Assembly: GCF_048403405.1 (NCBI RefSeq)
Contig: NZ_CP183129.1
Source of the DNA: Escherichia coli
GTDB lineage: Bacteria; Pseudomonadota; Gammaproteobacteria; Enterobacterales; Enterobacteriaceae
Length of the DNA stretch: 64,000 bases
Strand: one strand, 5' to 3'
Made by a program: the position numbers and the translations under genes. The notes under the pieces were generated by a model. The model was not told the DNA's origin. It did not search any database and was given only the letters and a program-made list of their open reading frames with translations. Numbering within the stretch: position 1 is the stretch's first letter; each line of letters opens with the position of its first letter. Positions 10,943 through 50,978 of this stretch are shown one piece after another.

Positions 10943-12109
10943 TCAAACTGATGGACGCAAACGAACGCGTAACCAGCTGTATCCAATTACCGCCGAAGAG
11001 ATAGAACCGACCAGGATACCGAGTTTCGCCCAGTTAATCAGTTCTGGATCTACGCTACCAAAGGCCAGGCTGGCAATAAAGATAGACATAGTAAAACCGA
11101 TACCGCACAGGATCCCCACCGCCATAATTTGCTGATAAGTCGTTCCCTCAGGCAGATGCGCCAGTTTCAAACGCAGCGCCAACCAGCAGAACAGACTAAT
11201 CCCCAGCGGTTTGCCAATCAGCAAGCCAGCGATGATCCCCAATGGTAGAATGGAGGTCAAGCCATCCAGCGTGACGCCTTGCAGTGAAACGCCAGCATTA
11301 GCAAATGCAAACAGCGGTAAAATCAGATACGCCACCCACGGGTGCAACACATGCTCCAGTCGCTTCGCTGGAGAACGCCCATGCTTCTCTTTCAAAGGAA
11401 TAAAGAAGCCGACAATTACCCCCGCCAGGGTTGCGTGAACCCCCGATTTCAACACCGCAGTCCACAACACCACGCCAACCAGAATATAGACGCCCGTGCG
11501 GCGTACACCACACAGATTCAATACCGCGAGTACCGCAATTGCTACAGCCGCGACGCCAAGAGAGGCCATCGATAAGTCATTAGTGTAGAACAATGCGATG
11601 ATAATGATGGCCCCAAGATCGTCGATAATAGCCAGAGCCATCAAAAAGATCTTCAGCGCTAACGGAACACGACTTCCCAATAGCGCCAGCACACCAAGTG
11701 CAAAAGCAATGTCAGTAGCCGCCGGGATCGCCCACCCTTCGCGGGTAATCGGATCGGCATGGTTAAAGGCCAGATAGAGTAATGCAGGCACAATCATCCC
11801 ACCAATAGCGGCGATAACTGGAAATGCAGCCTGGCGTAAGCTGGCTAGCGATCCTTGCATCAGTTCACGTTTAACTTCCAGACCGACTAACAGGAAAAAT
11901 ACCGCCATCAGCGCGTCATTTATCCATAACAGCATGTTTTTGTTGATTTCGAGTGAACCAACCCGGAGCTGAACCGGCGTCTCCAGAAAGTCGTGATACC
12001 ATCCACTGGTTGCGCCGCTGTTGGCCATAATCATCGCCAGGATAGCGGCAATGATAAGAATAATGCCTCCCGAGGCATCACTGCTAAAGAATCGATGCAG
12101 ATGTTTCAC
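10943..12109 (-). CDS. nhaA: Na+/H+ antiporter NhaA
   Basis: 388-aa polytopic membrane protein [31 protein letters not shown]... Confidence 0.95.
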
Positions 12110-12589
12110 TTTTTATTTCTCTTTCAGGTGAATAGATCGTTTTTACTATCTTACCCCGCACGAATCATCGTTAAAATCAGATTATAGTGTAGGAATAATT
12201 CGTTTTTTACGAACCATTGAAGGATTTGTGCCATCAGCGATGAGATGAGTTTTTGACGGCTGTAAGCGCTGACGTGTGACCCTAAGCCCTGATAATCATA
12301 GCTTAAGGTCAGGATTTCTGAGGGATTAATTAGGAAAAGTAATAATTAATTTGTTGTCAGTCGGCGATGTTTGTTAGGCCAATATTTCAAAAATAATCCA
12401 GTTTGTCGTCAATAATTGCGATGAAGAGATAAATTAAAGTTAAATAATTAAATCATTAAAAAATTACGCCATAAAAATGCGAGGCGTCTTCAGGATTAGA
12501 ATCGATAAAACAGAATGGGTTAAAGAGAGCGATATAATAGCGGCGGGTGCTTGAGGCTGTCTGTCTCAGGCATTAGCTGAACGGCAGAT

Positions 12590-12650
12590 AGAGAAAAGCC
12601 CCGAGTGATATTTTACCATCAACCCGAGGCCCCCTATATGCTGAACACAT
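12590..12650 (-). ncRNA. sokC: predicted Sok-type antisense RNA overlapping mokC start
   Basis: Position inferred from hok/sok architecture (antisense to mok translation initiation region); not verified by structure. Confidence 0.3.
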
Positions 12651-12847
12651 GTAGAGTGCCTCTTACTGACCGTAAGGTCAAGGAGAAGAGAGCAATGAAG
12701 CAGCATAAGGCGATGATTGTCGCCCTGATCGTCATCTGTATCACCGCCGTAGTGGCGGCGCTGGTAACGAGAAAAGACCTCTGTGAGGTTCACATCCGAA
12801 CTGGCCAGACGGAGGTTGCTGTTTTCACGGCTTACGAATCCGAGTAA
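12638..12847 (+). CDS. mokC: hok-family regulatory overlapping reading frame
   Basis: 69-aa frame MLNTCRVPLTDRKVKEKRAMKQHK... fully overlapping hokC. Confidence 0.6.
   Translation: MLNTCRVPLTDRKVKEKRAMKQHKAMIVALIVICITAVVAALVTRKDLCEVHIRTGQTEVAVFTAYESE
12695..12847 (+). CDS. hokC: Hok/Gef family small membrane toxin
   Basis: 50-aa MKQHKAMIVALIVICITAVVAALVTRKDLCEVHIRTGQTEVAVFTAYESE, textbook Hok/Gef sequence. Confidence 0.85.
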   Translation: MKQHKAMIVALIVICITAVVAALVTRKDLCEVHIRTGQTEVAVFTAYESE

Positions 12848-12920
12848 GAGCAACGGCGGGGAGTGATCCCCGCCACTTTACAGGTGCTCGCATATCTTCA
12901 ACGCACCCTATTTTTAACCA

Positions 12921-12943
12921 AGCCTGCCCACGGGCAGGCTTTT
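12921..12943 (-). terminator. hairpin just downstream of dnaJ stop (likely dnaKJ terminator; convergent with hokC)
   Basis: agcctgccc-acg-ggcaggct stem with flanking T-rich runs; a second hairpin ggcgggga-gtga-tccccgcc lies at ~12855-12874 directly after hokC. Confidence 0.45.
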
Positions 12944-12950
12944 GGGGAGG

Positions 12951-14081
12951 TTAGCGAGTCAGGTCGTCGAAAAACTTCTTCACACCATCAAAGAAGCTCT
13001 TTGAACGCGGGCTGTTGTGCTCGCCGGTTGGGCCACCGAAGCTTTCCTGCAGCTCTTGCAGCAGCTGTTTCTGCTTCTCGTTCAGACCTACCGGTGTTTC
13101 GACGACAACGCGGCACAGCAAATCACCCTGTGCGCCACCGCGGACAGACTTGACGCCTTTACCGCGCATACGGAACAGCTTACCGGTCTGGGTTTCGCCA
13201 GGCACTTTCAGTTTGACGCGACCATCAAGGGTCGGTACTTCGATTTCGCCACCCAGCGCCGCCATAGCGAAGTTGATCGGGACTTCGCAATACAGGTTGT
13301 TACCTTCACGCTCGAAAATCGGGTGCTGTTTAACCTGAACCTGAACGTACAGATCGCCTGCCGGTGCGCCATGCTCGCCCGCTTCACCTTCGCCCGCAAG
13401 ACGGATGCGGTCTCCAGTGTCCACCCCTGCCGGGATTTTAACGGACAGCGTTTTGCTGCGCTCAACACGACCATGACCATGACATTTGTTGCACGGATCT
13501 TTGATCAGCGTACCCCGGCCCTGACAGTGTGGACAGGTCTGCTGCACGGCAAAGAAACCCTGGCGCATCTGCACCTGACCAGAACCATGACAGGTCGGAC
13601 AGGTCTGCGGCTGTGTACCTGGTTTTGCACCGCTACCGTGGCAAACGTCACACTCTTCCAGAGTCGGAATGCGGATCTCTTTGGTCACGCCACGTACAGC
13701 TTCTTCGAGGGTGAGCTCCATGTTATAGCGTAAATCAGCACCGCGCGCCGCACGTTGACGACCACGTCCGCCGCCAAAAATATCGCCGAAAACGTCACCA
13801 AAAATATCGCTGAAGTCTGCGCCGCCGCCGAAACCGCCGCCGCCCATGCCACCTTGCTCAAACGCAGCATGACCATACTGATCGTATGCCGCACGTTTTT
13901 GCGAGTCGGTCAGAACTTCATAAGCTTCCTTGATCTCTTTAAATTTCGCCTCGGCCTCTTTATCACCCTGGTTACGGTCCGGGTGGTATTTCATGGCCAG
14001 GCGTTTGTAGGCCTTTTTGATTTCACGCTCTTCCGCTGTTTTGGAAACGCCTAAAATCTCGTAATAATCTTGCTTAGCCAT
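12951..14081 (-). CDS. dnaJ: Hsp40 co-chaperone DnaJ
   Basis: Track ORF 12951..14111; DnaJ N-terminus [12 protein letters not shown] starts 10 codons in; J-domain, G/F region, CxxCxGxG zinc fingers present. Confidence 0.95.
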
Positions 14082-14169
14082 CTTTTTTAAATTGCCCCTA
14101 GATGAATGCACGGGCGGAGAGGAAATTCCCCTTCGCCCGTGTCAGTATAATTACCCGTTTATAGGGCGA

Positions 14170-16086
14170 TTATTTTTTGTCTTTGACTTCTTCAAATTCA
14201 GCGTCGACAACATCGTCATCTTTCGCGTTGTTTGCAGAAGCATCAGCACCGGCAGTCTGCTGCTGGGCATGTTGCTGCTGGGCGATTTCCATCAGTTTCT
14301 GGGAAACCTGTGCCAGTTCCTGCATTTTCGCTTCGATAGCGGCTTTGTCTTCACCTTTCAGAGCAGTTTCCAGTGCAGTCAGTGCAGACTCGATAGCAGT
14401 TTTGTCGTCAGCCGGCAGTTTGTCGCCTGCTTCTTCAACCTGCTTACGGGTGCTGTGCAGCAGATGGTCACCCTGGTTGCGAGTCTGTACCAGCTCTTCA
14501 AACTTACGGTCAGCTTCGGCGTTAGCTTCTGCGTCGCGTACCATTTTCTGGATTTCATCTTCGTTCAGACCAGAAGAAGCCTTGATGGTGATCTTCTGCT
14601 CTTTACCGCTGTTTTTATCTTTCGCGGAAACGTGCAGGATACCGTCAGCATCGATATCGAAGGTAACTTCGATCTGCGGCATACCGCGCGGTGCCGGGTT
14701 GATACCATCCAGGTTGAACTGACCCAGAGATTTGTTATCAGCCGCACGTTTACGTTCACCCTGCAGCACATGGATGGTTACCGCAGACTGGTTGTCTTCA
14801 GCGGTAGAGAACACCTGGCTGTGCTTGGTCGGGATAGTGGTGTTTTTCGCGATCAGCGTCGTCATCACACCGCCCATGGTTTCGATACCCAGTGACAGCG
14901 GGGTAACGTCCAGCAGCAGTACGTCTTTTACGTCACCAGTCAGAACACCACCCTGAACAGCAGCACCGATTGCTACAGCTTCGTCCGGGTTAACGTCTTT
15001 ACGCGGCTCTTTACCAAAGAACTCAGCAACTTTCTTCTGAACCATTGGCATACGAGTCTGACCACCAACGAGGATAACGTCGTCGATATCAGATACGGAC
15101 AGGCCAGCGTCCTGCAGTGCAACTTTCAGCGGCTCAATGGAACGGTTTACCAGATCTTCAACCAGGCTTTCCAGTTTCGCACGAGTCACTTTGATGTTCA
15201 TGTGTTTCGGACCGGTCGCGTCTGCAGTGATGTACGGCAGGTTAACGTCGGTCTGCTGAGCGGAAGACAGCTCGATTTTCGCTTTTTCTGCCGCTTCTTT
15301 CAGGCGCTGCATTGCCAGCGGATCGTTGCGCAGGTCAATGCCCTGATCTTTCTTGAATTCTTCAACCAGGTAGTTGATCAGACGGCTGTCGAAGTCTTCA
15401 CCACCCAGGTGGGTATCACCGTTGGTTGCCAGAACTTCGAAGGTTTTTTCGCCGTCAACTTCGTCGATTTCGATAATAGAAATATCGAAAGTACCACCAC
15501 CCAGGTCATAAACCGCGATAGTACGGTTGCCAGTACCTTTGTCCAGACCGTAAGCCAGCGCAGCTGCGGTCGGTTCGTTGATGATACGTTTTACTTCCAG
15601 ACCAGCGATACGGCCTGCGTCTTTGGTTGCCTGACGCTGAGCATCGTTAAAGTATGCCGGTACGGTGATAACAGCTTCAGTTACCGGTTCACCCAGGTAA
15701 TCTTCAGCGGTTTTCTTCATTTTTTTCAGCACTTCAGCAGAAATCTGCGGCGGTGCCATTTTCTGGCCTTTAACTTCGACCCATGCGTCGCCGTTATCAG
15801 CAGCAATAATTTTGAACGGCATGATGGAAACATCACGCTGTACTTCTTCGTCCTGGAAGCGGCGGCCAATCAGGCGTTTAATCGCAAACAGGGTGTTTTG
15901 CGGGTTCGTCACTGCCTGACGTTTAGCCGGCTGACCAACCAGAGTTTCACCATCCTGGGTATAGGCAATGATAGAAGGCGTGGTGCGATCGCCTTCGGCG
16001 TTCTCCAGTACACGAGGAGTGGTGCCATCCATAATCGCTACACAAGAGTTGGTAGTACCCAGGTCGATACCAATTATTTTACCCAT
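14170..16086 (-). CDS. dnaK: Hsp70 chaperone DnaK
   Basis: 638 aa [21 protein letters not shown]... Confidence 0.97.
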
Positions 16087-16207
16087 CTAAACGTCTCCAC
16101 TATATATTCGGTCATCATGTGGTTGTGAGTCTGTAATAGGGGCGAAACGTCTGGTTTCAACTGCCCAATTTCATTTTTTTGCAGACTCACTCACTGCGGT
16201 TGACTAC

Positions 16208-16240
16208 TAAATGGGGTCGTAACCCACGTCATCAAGGGGG
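16208..16240 (-). promoter_or_regulatory. sigma-32 heat-shock promoter of dnaK (P1-like)
   Basis: Minus strand reads CCCCCTTGATGA-N13-CCCCATTTA ~125 bp upstream of dnaK start, matching the sigma-32 consensus. Confidence 0.6.
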
Positions 16241-16461
16241 AGATGCAAAAATTTTTTGTGCTTTTGCGCAGAAATTTCGCGATATGCCAGAACAAGACAC
16301 GAAACTGACAGCAATTTTATTCATATAGAGAATGAATGACAGCCAAGACATTCATAGAAAAATTGTAATAAAAAGAAAATATTACGTACCTGAATCTTCT
16401 CTTTATCAGCAGTAAACTAGTGGGTATTCATCCCCTACCTCTCCCCACTAAGAGAATCCTT

Positions 16462-16866
16462 ATGAAATCCGTTTTTACGCTTTCCGCCAGCCTGGCGATT
16501 AGCCTGCTGCTGTGCTGCACAGCGCAGGCAAACAACCATAAAATCCTCGGCGTCATTGCGATGCCGCGTAACGAAACCAACGATCTGGCGCTGAAACTTC
16601 CTGTTTGTCGCATTGTTAAACGCATTCAACTCACTGCCGACCATGGCGATTTACAGTTAAGTGGTGCATCGGTTTATTTAAAAGCCGCCCGTAGTGCCAG
16701 TCAGAGCCTGAATATTCCTTCAGAAATAAAAGAAGGGCAAACCACTGACTGGATCAACATTAACAGCGATAACGACAATAAACGCTGCGTCTCAAAAATC
16801 ACCTTTTCCGGCCATACGGTGAACTCATCGGATATGGCCACGCTGAAAATTATCGGCGACGACTAA
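16462..16866 (+). CDS. yaaI: DUF2541 periplasmic protein YaaI
   Basis: Track ORF 16420..16866; signal-peptide start [23 protein letters not shown] 14 codons in; conserved position after dnaK. Confidence 0.8.
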
Positions 16867-16891: not shown

Positions 16892-17605
16892 ATGAATGTT
16901 AATTACCTGAATGATTCAGATCTGGATTTTCTCCAGCATTGTAGTGAGGAACAATTGGCAAATTTCGCCCGGCTGCTCACTCATAATGAAAAAGGCAAAA
17001 CTCGCCTCTCCAGCGTACTGATGCGCAACGAACTGTTTAAATCGATGGAAGGACATCCCGAGCAACACCGCCGCAACTGGCAGCTGATTGCCGGAGAATT
17101 ACAACATTTTGGTGGCGATAGTATCGCCAACAAATTGCGCGGACACGGTAAATTGTATCGGGCCATTTTGCTCGATGTTTCAAAAAGATTGAAGCTGAAA
17201 GCCGACAAAGAGATGTCTACGTTTGAAATTGAGCAACAGTTACTGGAGCAATTTCTGCGTAATACCTGGAAGAAAATGGACGAGGAACATAAGCAGGAGT
17301 TTCTGCACGCGGTCGATGCCAGGGTGAATGAGCTGGAAGAGCTGCTGCCGCTGCTGATGAAAGACAAATTATTGGCAAAAGGCGTGTCGCATTTGCTTTC
17401 CAGCCAATTGACCCGCATTTTACGCACCCACGCAGCAATGAGCGTACTTGGGCATGGTTTGCTGCGCGGCGCGGGGCTGGGAGGCCCTGTAGGCGCGGCA
17501 CTAAATGGGGTTAAAGCGGTCAGCGGCAGCGCCTATCGCGTGACGATTCCAGCCGTACTGCAAATCGCCTGCCTGCGCCGGATGGTTAGTGCCACTCAGG
17601 TCTGA
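16892..17605 (+). CDS. yaaW: UPF0174 protein YaaW
   Basis: 237-aa ORF in conserved yaaI-yaaW-satP arrangement. Confidence 0.8.
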   Translation: MNVNYLNDSDLDFLQHCSEEQLANFARLLTHNEKGKTRLSSVLMRNELFKSMEGHPEQHRRNWQLIAGELQHFGGDSIANKLRGHGKLYRAILLDVSKRLKLKADKEMSTFEIEQQLLEQFLRNTWKKMDEEHKQEFLHAVDARVNELEELLPLLMKDKLLAKGVSHLLSSQLTRILRTHAAMSVLGHGLLRGAGLGGPVGAALNGVKAVSGSAYRVTIPAVLQIACLRRMVSATQV

Positions 17606-23059: not shown

Positions 23060-23770
23060 ATAAATATCCTCCGGCATAGCCGGAGGTTTTTCAAATGCGC
23101 CTATAAGGCTCTCTTACCAGCCGCGCCCTAACAGGCGCACACGATCTGACATTTGCATCCAACTTCGTTACTTACGGCCCGTAAACGGGCTGCCCGGATA
23201 GGGAATCGATAACTGCTCTCCCATTTTATCCTCTTCAAGCTGGTGCTTTATGTAATCCTGTATCTTCGCCGTGTTCTTACCCACCGTATCGACGTAGTAC
23301 CCTCTGCACCAGAACTCCCTGTTCCTGTATTTGAATTTCAAATCACCAAACTGCTCGTAAAGCATCAGACTGCTTTTCCCTTTCAGATATCCCATAAAGC
23401 CGGATACGCTCATTTTGGGCGGGATCTCCACAAGCATATGGATATGATCTGCACAGCATTCAGCTTCCAGAATCCGTACACTTTTCCACTCACACAGCTT
23501 TCTCAAAATACTGCCTATTGCTCTACGCTTCTCTCTGTAGAACACCTGTCTTCGGTATTTTGGCGCAAAAACTATGTGATATTTACAGTTCCATCGGGTG
23601 TGCGCTAAGCTCTTTTCGTTCCCCATTGGGACCCCCTTTTGATTTCTTGTTTGACACTTGCAGTTGCCAGACCGCAAGGTGTTTTAACAAATCAAAAGGG
23701 GTTTTAATAACTGGCTTAAAGCTGAAAGCTTTCCGGAACCCCCAGCCTAGCTGGGGGTTTTCTGTGCACA
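23060..23770 (-). mobile_element. IS200-like insertion sequence (IS200/IS605 family), ends approximate
   Basis: Single HUH/Y1 transposase gene preceded by long RBS-sequestering inverted repeat (23634-23702) and terminal palindrome cccccagc-cta-gctggggg; yaaX-thrC gap is ~710 bp longer than I recall for K-12. Confidence 0.65.
23168..23626 (-). CDS. tnpA: IS200-type transposase TnpA (Y1 HUH)
   Basis: 152-aa MGNEKSLAHTRWNCKYHIVFAPKYRR...HIHMLVEIPP... (HUH motif) within track ORF 23168..23677. Confidence 0.85.
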   Translation of the reverse strand: MGNEKSLAHTRWNCKYHIVFAPKYRRQVFYREKRRAIGSILRKLCEWKSVRILEAECCADHIHMLVEIPPKMSVSGFMGYLKGKSSLMLYEQFGDLKFKYRNREFWCRGYYVDTVGKNTAKIQDYIKHQLEEDKMGEQLSIPYPGSPFTGRK

Positions 23771-49427: not shown

Positions 49428-49542
49428 TAAGGCTCCTGTAAAATCGTTCGAAGCAGGGAAAATAACGCATGAGGCTACCTTGTATCCATTGCTTCTGGCA
49501 ACATTAAGTCTCAAATTGTACTGACCCCAAAAAGTTGGACAG

Positions 49543-50394
49543 TTAAACACGAGGCATATAGGTCTGATTCCGATATTCAATTGGAGTCAGACCTTTTAAT
49601 TTCAGGCTAATTCTTCTGCTGTTGTAGTATTCAATATATTCCGTAACAGCATCCTTCAGTTCGCTTATATTACTGAACTCATCAAGATAAAAACACTCCG
49701 ACTTTAAGGTTCCAAAGAAACACTCCACCACAGCATTATCCAGACAATTGCCTTTTCTGGACATGCTTTGTTTAATACCATGTTCTTTAAGGATATTTTG
49801 ATATCTTCTCATACGATACTGCCATCCCTGGTCAGAGTGCAGAACAGGATGCTCGTGAGGATTAAGCTTTTTGAATGCCTGATCGAGCATATTCTCAACC
49901 ATGTTCATCACTGGTCTTTCCGAAAGGCTGTAAGAAATAACTTCGTTGTTGAAGAGATCTATTACTGGAGACAAATACAGCTTGCGCCCATTGACTACAA
50001 ATTCAGTAACATCGGTAACCCACTTCTCGTTTGGCCGCGTAGCCTTGAAATCTCTTTGGAGAACATTAGGGGCGGTTTGCCCTACCTCTCCTCTGTAAGA
50101 GCGGTATCGCTTGACCTTAATCGCTGCTTTAAGTGAGAGGGTTCCCATCAGGCGCTGAACAGCTTTATGGTTAATCTGTTTCCCTTCTCGATGAAGAGAC
50201 AGCGTTACCCTACGGTATCCGTATCGGCCTCTATTCTCGTGATAAATCTCACCAATACGCTTTTTAACGTCCGCATACTTGTCAGGCTTGCTGAGAGCCT
50301 TTAGATGGTAATAAAACGTACTGCGCGGTATCTCCGCAGCCCTGAGAAGCTCATCAAGAGGATAAAACTGCCTTAGCTCGTTGAGTACTTTTAC
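49543..50394 (-). CDS. insK: IS150 transposase orfB (DDE domain), expressed as orfAB fusion by -1 frameshift
   Basis: Frame lacks an ATG for its first ~80 codons; track lists only the distal 201 aa; overlaps orfA stop. Confidence 0.85.
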
Positions 50395-50912
50395 TTTTTC
50401 GTGGGATGAGCTAAGGCTTTCAGCTTTTTTAGATACATAAGCCGCGTTTCAAGAAATCGAACTTGCCTTTCAAGATCCTCAATGCGTCGGTCTTTTGACA
50501 GCTCCAATGCTGATGCCGCTTTTTCTGGATCAACTGATATTGCAATGTTTCTTTTGGTGCCAATCTTGAGCGCGCGTAAACCAGCTTCTCCGCGCTCTTC
50601 ATAGACCTTCAGCCACCTGGCTACAGAACCACTACCAGCAAGCATAAAGTGAGCAGCAGCCTGATTAAGGGACATGTGCTGCTCGATCACAGCTTTCACG
50701 ACCTTAATACGCAACTCTGGATCAGCACTAACGCCTTTAGGTTTGGGAATTAAACCTTTTTCTCCATGTTTTTCATAGAGGGCAACCCATGTCCTGACCT
50801 GGGTTCGGGGGACACCAAAACGTGCCGAGATGATCCTGTAACCATCATCAGTTGTGAAGTAGTGATTCACGACTTCAAGGCGCTTTTCAAAAGGGTATTT
50901 TGGCTTTGACAT
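50391..50912 (-). CDS. insJ: IS150 transposase orfA (HTH)
   Basis: 173 aa MSKPKYPFEKRLEVVNHYFTTDDGYRIISARFGVPRTQVRTWV... Confidence 0.9.
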   Translation of the reverse strand: MSKPKYPFEKRLEVVNHYFTTDDGYRIISARFGVPRTQVRTWVALYEKHGEKGLIPKPKGVSADPELRIKVVKAVIEQHMSLNQAAAHFMLAGSGSVARWLKVYEERGEAGLRALKIGTKRNIAISVDPEKAASALELSKDRRIEDLERQVRFLETRLMYLKKLKALAHPTKK

Positions 50913-50978
50913 ATTAGGGGCTATTCCATTTCATCGTCCAACAAAATGGGTGCAGTACAAATTTTCAAAGGGTGGAAG

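Follow-up and report, generated by a model that had tools for sequence, protein, structure and literature searches.

The IS-free hokC/sokC locus of Escherichia coli strain ECOR24 was reportedly characterised by Pedersen and Gerdes in 1999 (Mol Microbiol 32:1090). The mechanism of hok genes has been described for the family, and in the processed mRNA of plasmid R1 the open form consists of two stems, in which the translational activator tac pairs with the upstream complementary box ucb and the mok Shine-Dalgarno sequence (SD) pairs with the downstream complementary box dcb (PMC9841398). For hokC from ECOR24, a transcript of about 330 nt and an antisense RNA, sokC, have been described (PMC3562002). 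The gef gene of K-12 is hokC with IS186 downstream, an insertion thought to disrupt both the fold-back inhibitory element fbi and mRNA processing (PMC3562002). Duplexes of mokC and sokC are substrates of RNase III (bioRxiv 10.1101/510842). The allele analysed here is common and already annotated: the locus, its regulatory elements, the disruption by IS186 in K-12 and natural IS-free alleles have been described since 1999, and RefSeq annotation of the gene exists in thousands of genomes.

Here, we analysed a stretch of 64,000 nucleotides from E. coli contig NZ_CP183129.1 (hereafter the window), which as a whole corresponds to the thr-dnaK-dnaJ-nhaA region of the chromosome in reverse orientation and is collinear with strain TUM14771 at 99.98% identity. 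Within it, nhaA (minus strand, start at 12109) and dnaJ (minus strand) flank a single small gene pair on the plus strand:

12638-12847, plus strand: mokC reading frame, 69 aa, in the hokC frame and with a common stop codon
12695-12847, plus strand: hokC toxin gene, 50 aa, MKQHKAMIVALIVICITAVVAALVTRKDLCEVHIRTGQTEVAVFTAYESE, from the open reading frame list and the sequence
12848-12950: hokC-dnaJ intergenic spacer, 103 bp between the convergent stops
12951-12953, minus strand: dnaJ stop codon, read from the sequence

The arrangement of the two frames is that of the K-12 annotation (b0018, b4412), and the hokC product of a nearly identical genome is RefSeq protein WP_000809168.1. The Pfam family HOK_GEF (PF01848) matched the 69-aa product over positions 1-42 of the 42 in the model (E = 5.5e-24), and scores against the NCBIfam Hok models stayed under the curated cut-offs (Hok subfamily: E = 2e-12, 46.8 bits vs a 73-bit cut-off). 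On the nucleotide level, Rfam model RF01794 matched 12545-12697 on the plus strand over its full length (1-157) at 119.5 bits, where the gathering score is 59 (E = 1.2e-26). The match spans 153 nt and ends at the hokC AUG; as this model, named "sok antitoxin", is built on the sense strand of hok mRNA, the match counts towards the leader, not towards the antisense RNA as such. An earlier note on this DNA had described an intact hokC (50 aa) with an overlapping mokC (69 aa), followed by about 100 bp with two hairpins before the convergent dnaJ stop. The open reading frame list and the sequence agree with the former, and the latter corresponds to 103 bp in which the folds show hairpins at 12855-12874 and ~12920-12943. 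The locus it delimited is real, but its start at 12590 clips the 5' part, since the leader begins at ~12545 and the -10 box lies at 12533-12538.

Alignment with an R1-type plasmid hok and with a plasmid hokD-type locus placed every named regulatory element in a conserved block:

12533-12538, plus strand: probable hokC promoter -10 box TATAAT, from the sequence, aligning with TATGAT of R1-type hok
12545-12915, plus strand: putative full-length hokC mRNA of ~371 nt, starting with tac and ending at the U-run past fbi
12545-12557, plus strand: tac, GGGUGCUUGAGGC, conserved in R1-type and hokD-type loci
12596-12603, plus strand: ucb, the anti-SD of mok, from the folds; the Rfam consensus structure has the pairing
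12626-12629, plus strand: mokC SD GAGG, from the sequence, pairing with ucb (full-length) or dcb (truncated)
12658-12662, plus strand: dcb GCCUC, partner of the mok SD once the mRNA is truncated, as in the Rfam consensus
12680-12685, plus strand: hokC SD AAGGAG, invariant in 5 of 5 aligned loci
12833-12836, plus strand: UACG motif at codon Tyr47, where TadA is expected to edit A12834 (A-to-I; Tyr to Cys), from the sequence
12855-12874, plus strand: hairpin 1, GGCGGGG-AGUGAU-CCCCGCC, from the folds; IS186 target
12896-12908, plus strand: fbi, CUUCAACGCACCC, 12 pairs with tac
to 12915, plus strand: U-run after fbi
~12920-12943: hairpin 2, with a T-run on the plus strand, from the fold

The 5' end of the mRNA was set at position 1 of the Rfam model, and its 3' end by analogy with the R1-type 398-nt mRNA, which stops 7 nt past its own fbi. 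The processed mRNA probably ends at hairpin 1; hairpin 2 is probably the dnaJ terminator and may possibly serve as a back-up terminator for hokC. Upstream, GAGG and the ATG at 12638 open a mok reading frame with its own ribosome-binding site, which runs for 69 codons through hokC. The mok-hok frame is not conserved in the family, with an offset of 57 nt (in frame) in hokC and R1-type loci and of 58 nt in plasmid hokD-type loci; this variability is consistent with mok acting via its translation and not via its product. Editing at Tyr47 would yield Cys47, which could pair with Cys30.

The predicted fold of the 371-nt RNA (12545-12915) had a z-score of -7.8. In both the minimum-energy and the centroid fold of the full-length molecule, 12545-12556 pairs with 12896-12908 (12 pairs) and the mok SD is sequestered by ucb, so that a long-range fold-back between 5' tac and 3' fbi is predicted to lock the full-length hokC mRNA. 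When the RNA was ended just past hairpin 1, at 12877 or 12880, the prediction switched to tac/ucb and SD/dcb pairing, an open form that is also encoded in the Rfam consensus, and an RNA ended at 12890 was predicted to fold into a metastable 5' hairpin. Depending on length, tac is thus predicted to pair with fbi (full-length), with ucb (truncated) or with 12563-12574 in the metastable hairpin (intermediate), and ucb switches from the mok SD (full-length) to tac (truncated). As a positive control, the tac/fbi fold-back and the sequestration of the SD were recovered in the R1-type (398-nt mRNA) and plasmid hokD-type loci. The minimum-energy fold of a truncated R1 control (361 nt) gave the metastable hairpin and did not reproduce the published tac/ucb stem, and the refolding predicted for hokC is for this reason only suggestive. 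Sites that pair with tac as well as fbi or better are rare: only five exist on the plus strand of the 64 kb, fbi among them, which puts the chance of such a site within about 70 nt of the hokC stop at ~0.5%. Covariation within the family is well documented; tac and fbi differ between loci in a compensatory manner (GGGUGC/GCACCC in hokC vs GGCGC/GCGCC in R1), and the hokD-type fbi differs from that of hokC at a G-U to G-C position and at a bulged base. K-12-type transcripts running into IS186 (403, 503 and 643 nt) were predicted to adopt the open form each time, which agrees with the literature, where IS186 is held to abolish fold-back inhibition (PMC3562002).

Opposite the leader, two features were assigned to the antisense RNA:

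12646-12588, minus strand: sokC antisense RNA, 59 nt, from the K-12 sokC annotation (16952-17010) mapped through the alignment
12653-12681, minus strand: probable sokC promoter, with -35 box TTGACC (12681-12676), a 17-nt spacer and -10 box CACTCT (12658-12653)

In the predicted fold, SokC begins with a single-stranded 5' tail of ~9 nt lying over the mokC AUG; one long stem-loop follows, and the 3' end is rich in U. This architecture is known from R1 Sok. The start site at 12646 is correctly spaced, 7 nt downstream of the -10 box. This box is weak, and the R1 sok -10 box TATCCT is stronger; the probable promoter occupies a position homologous to the TTGCGC/TATCCT region of R1 and is identical in sequence to K-12. 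Its -35 box overlaps the hokC SD of the opposite strand. The hokC promoter in turn has a poor -35 region (ACAGAA, about 12510-12515). Neither promoter was picked up when 12100-13000 was scanned for sigma-70 and terminator consensus sequences, and both were therefore placed by homology and geometry only; the two hairpins went uncalled in the same scan. At the sequence level, promoter, 5' tail, stem-loop and U-rich end point to the presence of a cis-encoded Sok gene. SokC would presumably be expressed in this strain as well, expression being known only for K-12. The earlier note had proposed an alignment to characterised hok/sok loci, and had named a mutated sok promoter, a mutated mok ribosome-binding region or missing fold-back elements as findings that would speak against a functional system. 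That alignment located the sokC promoter region along with tac, ucb, dcb and fbi; no mutation separates the promoter from that of K-12, GAGG is intact, and all four fold-back elements are present and pair as in R1 hok. Judged by its sequence, the hokC/mokC/sokC locus is a bona fide member of the hok/sok family with every such feature intact, fbi included.

Neither IS186 nor IS1 was found in the 64-kb window by blastn, in line with the earlier note, which had reported the IS186 copy as absent here and had rightly stated that K-12 has an IS186 copy directly downstream of hokC (IS186A in the K-12 annotation). Alignment of both K-12 flanks showed that the K-12 insertion falls inside hairpin 1 and duplicates GGGAGTGATCCC, which corresponds to 12859-12870 of the window. 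Hairpin 1 holds GGGG-AGTGAT-CCCC (GGGG-N6-CCCC), and the site is empty in the window. The IS186 target consensus, reportedly established by SaiSree and co-workers in 2001, is a G-run, a short spacer and a C-run, with duplication of about 10-12 bp; the sequence of hairpin 1 fits this consensus. K-12 and E. coli C share the IS186 insertion site to the base and both have GGGAGTGATCCC duplicated, with the element pointing in opposite directions, and the occurrence of both orientations at hairpin 1 points to a recurrent hot spot. Behind hokE and a plasmid hokD-type gene, IS186 was likewise found at the equivalent site.

A 161-bp probe across the insertion point aligned without interruption in 3814 (about 70%) of 5425 complete E. 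coli genomes, and in the remaining 1611 it breaks at 12859-12870. Junction probes for IS186 scored in at most 841 genomes in the K-12 orientation and at most 953 in the opposite, E. coli C orientation; these counts are upper bounds, as their sum exceeds 1611 and paralogous hok-IS186 junctions such as that of hokE also score. The IS-free arrangement is the ancestral and majority state in E. coli, contrary to the rarity implied by the earlier note. In NZ_CP116925.1, hokC and dnaJ seemed to be separated by a different insert (1790-2500 of the locus), which was rejected as a mis-polished IS186: it is an assembly artefact made up of ~700 bp of poly-C/poly-G junk, to which the annotation assigns a 251-aa hypothetical protein. 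As fbi (12896-12908) lies downstream of the IS186 target and is uninterrupted here, the window allele keeps the fold-back that is lost in K-12.

The window contains other mobile and variable features. An IS150 copy of 1.44 kb (IS3 family) at 49518-50957, between serB and ytjB, carries reading frames beginning MSKPKYPFEKRLEVV and an InsK-like transposase; it is missing from TUM14771 and constitutes the only large difference between the two genomes. An IS200C transposase gene lies between thrC and a DUF2502 gene (23168-23759, position taken from the collinear TUM14771 annotation), and an Rfam STnc490 match at 23636-23759 (minus strand, 146 bits) is probably part of the IS200 element end. The interval between rpsT and nhaR, occupied in K-12 by IS1A only, contains at 3516-9940 the type III effector gene espX1 and a fimbrial operon of the chaperone-usher type. 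The operon has four genes, which encode the fimbrial subunit, the chaperone, the usher and a 319-aa 'hypothetical' protein (8981-9940) that is probably the adhesin. A match to the sRNA tpke11 at 14082-14159 (69.6 bits, Rfam) in the dnaK-dnaJ spacer is expected for E. coli. Among database records, the 4.9-Mb 'plasmid' NZ_CP141089.1 of PLSDB carries the chromosomal hokC locus at 99.8% identity and is evidently a misfiled chromosome.

How might the elements act together? Following the described mechanism of hok (PMC9841398), a weak promoter with its -10 box at 12533-12538 would give rise to a full-length mRNA of about 371 nt, in which 5' tac (12545-12557) pairs with 3' fbi (12896-12908). In this closed form ucb (12596-12603) would hold the mok ribosome-binding site (12626-12629), permitting neither translation nor binding of Sok. 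Slow trimming of the 3' end to hairpin 1 (about 12875) would remove fbi, and the leader would then refold into the tac/ucb and SD/dcb stems. The refolded mRNA could meet two fates: it may be bound by the 59-nt SokC (12646-12588, minus strand) and then cut by RNase III, or mokC may be translated and hokC by coupling, which would yield the 50-aa membrane toxin and could account for any killing. Of this scheme, the present analysis shows the sequence elements with their homology and their predicted alternative pairings, whereas the transcript ends, the 3' processing, the presence of SokC in this strain and any killing are inferred.

But does an intact sequence mean an active toxin-antitoxin system? 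We give practically no weight to the view that the reading frames and hairpins arose by chance in an intergenic region: the reading frames are short, nothing else favours such a view, and it is opposed by the Rfam and Pfam E-values given above, by the annotated locus in K-12 and by the presence of the locus in 5425 of 5426 complete E. coli genomes. The suggestion of the earlier note that the locus may be functional because it is IS-free is a different matter and holds in part. All cis elements including fbi are intact, but the IS-free hokC of ECOR24 is cited as giving neither post-segregational killing nor activation or killing upon rifampicin treatment (bioRxiv 10.1101/2025.08.07.668861), and in a CRISPRi screen of MG1655 the knock-down of sokC was strongly deleterious despite IS186, more so in minimal medium (bioRxiv 10.1101/2020.03.04.975888). 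IS186 hence does not simply turn the locus on or off by its absence or presence, and K-12 appears still to need SokC in spite of its insertion. The ECOR24 report could be taken to mean that the locus is structurally intact and transcribed but a physiological relic, the native expression of which stays below the toxic level, so that the IS-free state has no phenotype; a weak promoter, an efficient SokC or dependence on the infrequent conversion of Tyr47 to Cys by TadA might be the cause. The poor -35 box of the hokC promoter and the low extent of A-to-I editing of hokC mRNA in K-12 (9%; PMC12214031) fit this picture, which we nevertheless consider possible but unlikely. Conservation of the transcribed region is strong across phylogroups (two changes in 326 nt of mRNA in UPEC132 against nine upstream), the over-expressed HokC coding sequence is toxic (bioRxiv 10.1101/2025.08.07.668861), and knock-down of sokC harms MG1655.

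The same knock-down could be explained if IS186 made little functional difference and both alleles were active, Sok-controlled toxin genes; the insertion would then only remove the latent pool of full-length mRNA, and the IS-free allele would be differently timed instead of 'more functional'. The open, translatable and Sok-accessible folds predicted for K-12 transcripts reading into IS186 agree with this explanation, as does the reported antisense regulation of gef mRNA despite the insertion (PMC3562002). However, the CRISPRi result stems from a preprint screen without follow-up, in which guide RNAs to the 55-bp sokC feature may also hit hokC/mokC or the nhaA region, and loss of fbi abolishes latency in R1 (PMC9841398); on balance we find equivalence of the two alleles improbable, if well worth bearing in mind. 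Further-reaching, and in our view a long shot, is the idea that IS-free hokC is conditionally active, e.g. under nutrient limitation, and that its recurrent capture by IS186 is a selected domestication and not just a matter of target preference. It draws on the insertions in both orientations, their occurrence in about 30% of E. coli genomes and the corresponding insertions at hokE-type and plasmid hokD-type loci; if it were true, selected capture of IS186 at the 3' hairpin would remove the latent mRNA pool. Our preferred reading is that the window carries the wild-type, IS-free form of a type I toxin-antitoxin locus, which very probably works like hok/sok of plasmid R1. With regard to hokC, K-12 is an atypical strain, and physiological tests of the chromosomal gene should use an IS-free background; the clean switch between closed and open mRNA seen in silico makes the window allele a convenient model for such tests.

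Compared with described loci, the closest relative is hokC (gef)/mokC/sokC (sof) of K-12 (b4412/b0018/b4413), which lies at the same place in the chromosome, flanked by nhaA and dnaJ, and has mokC and hokC coding sequences identical to those of the window. Over 12475-12870 the two differ by only two substitutions, neither of them coding. One (12513, G in the window and A in K-12) falls in the poor -35 region of the hokC promoter; the other (12632, C in the window and T in K-12) lies between the mok ribosome-binding site and the mokC AUG in the overlap with Sok, where it is the only difference in the Sok region and where K-12 is the odd one out, as O157:H7 and UPEC132 have C like the window. 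In K-12, IS186A (15387-16731) lies between dnaJ and hokC and separates fbi from the mRNA by ~1.3 kb, whereas the spacer in the window is uninterrupted. UPEC132 (B2-type) differs from the window by nine changes in ~40 bp upstream of the hokC start site (12494-12532) and by two in the 326-nt mRNA, a pattern pointing to a recombination boundary or else to an mRNA under strong constraint; this strain also has an ompK-like gene between nhaA and hokC.

Plasmid hokD-type loci (E. albertii p2RM9976, E. coli p40EC-3) are about 75% identical over the whole mRNA and have an identical tac, and p40EC-3 carries IS186 at the homologous hairpin; they differ in that mok is out of the hok frame and that they are plasmid-borne, not chromosomal. 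The IS-free hokC/sokC of ECOR24 is, as described in citing papers, the same allele type, with fbi and a processed mRNA of ~330 nt (PMC3562002; bioRxiv 10.1101/2025.08.07.668861). Plasmid R1 hok/mok/sok (parB) confers post-segregational killing, whereas chromosomal hokC reportedly does not (bioRxiv 10.1101/2025.08.07.668861). The R1 leader is only about 70-75% identical to that of hokC and contains an additional 18-nt insertion. Nonetheless, R1 presents the same order of tac, ucb, Sok target, mok SD, dcb, hok SD, hok, 3' hairpin and fbi, has mok in frame with hok as in the hokC locus, and is predicted to form the same full-length fold-back.
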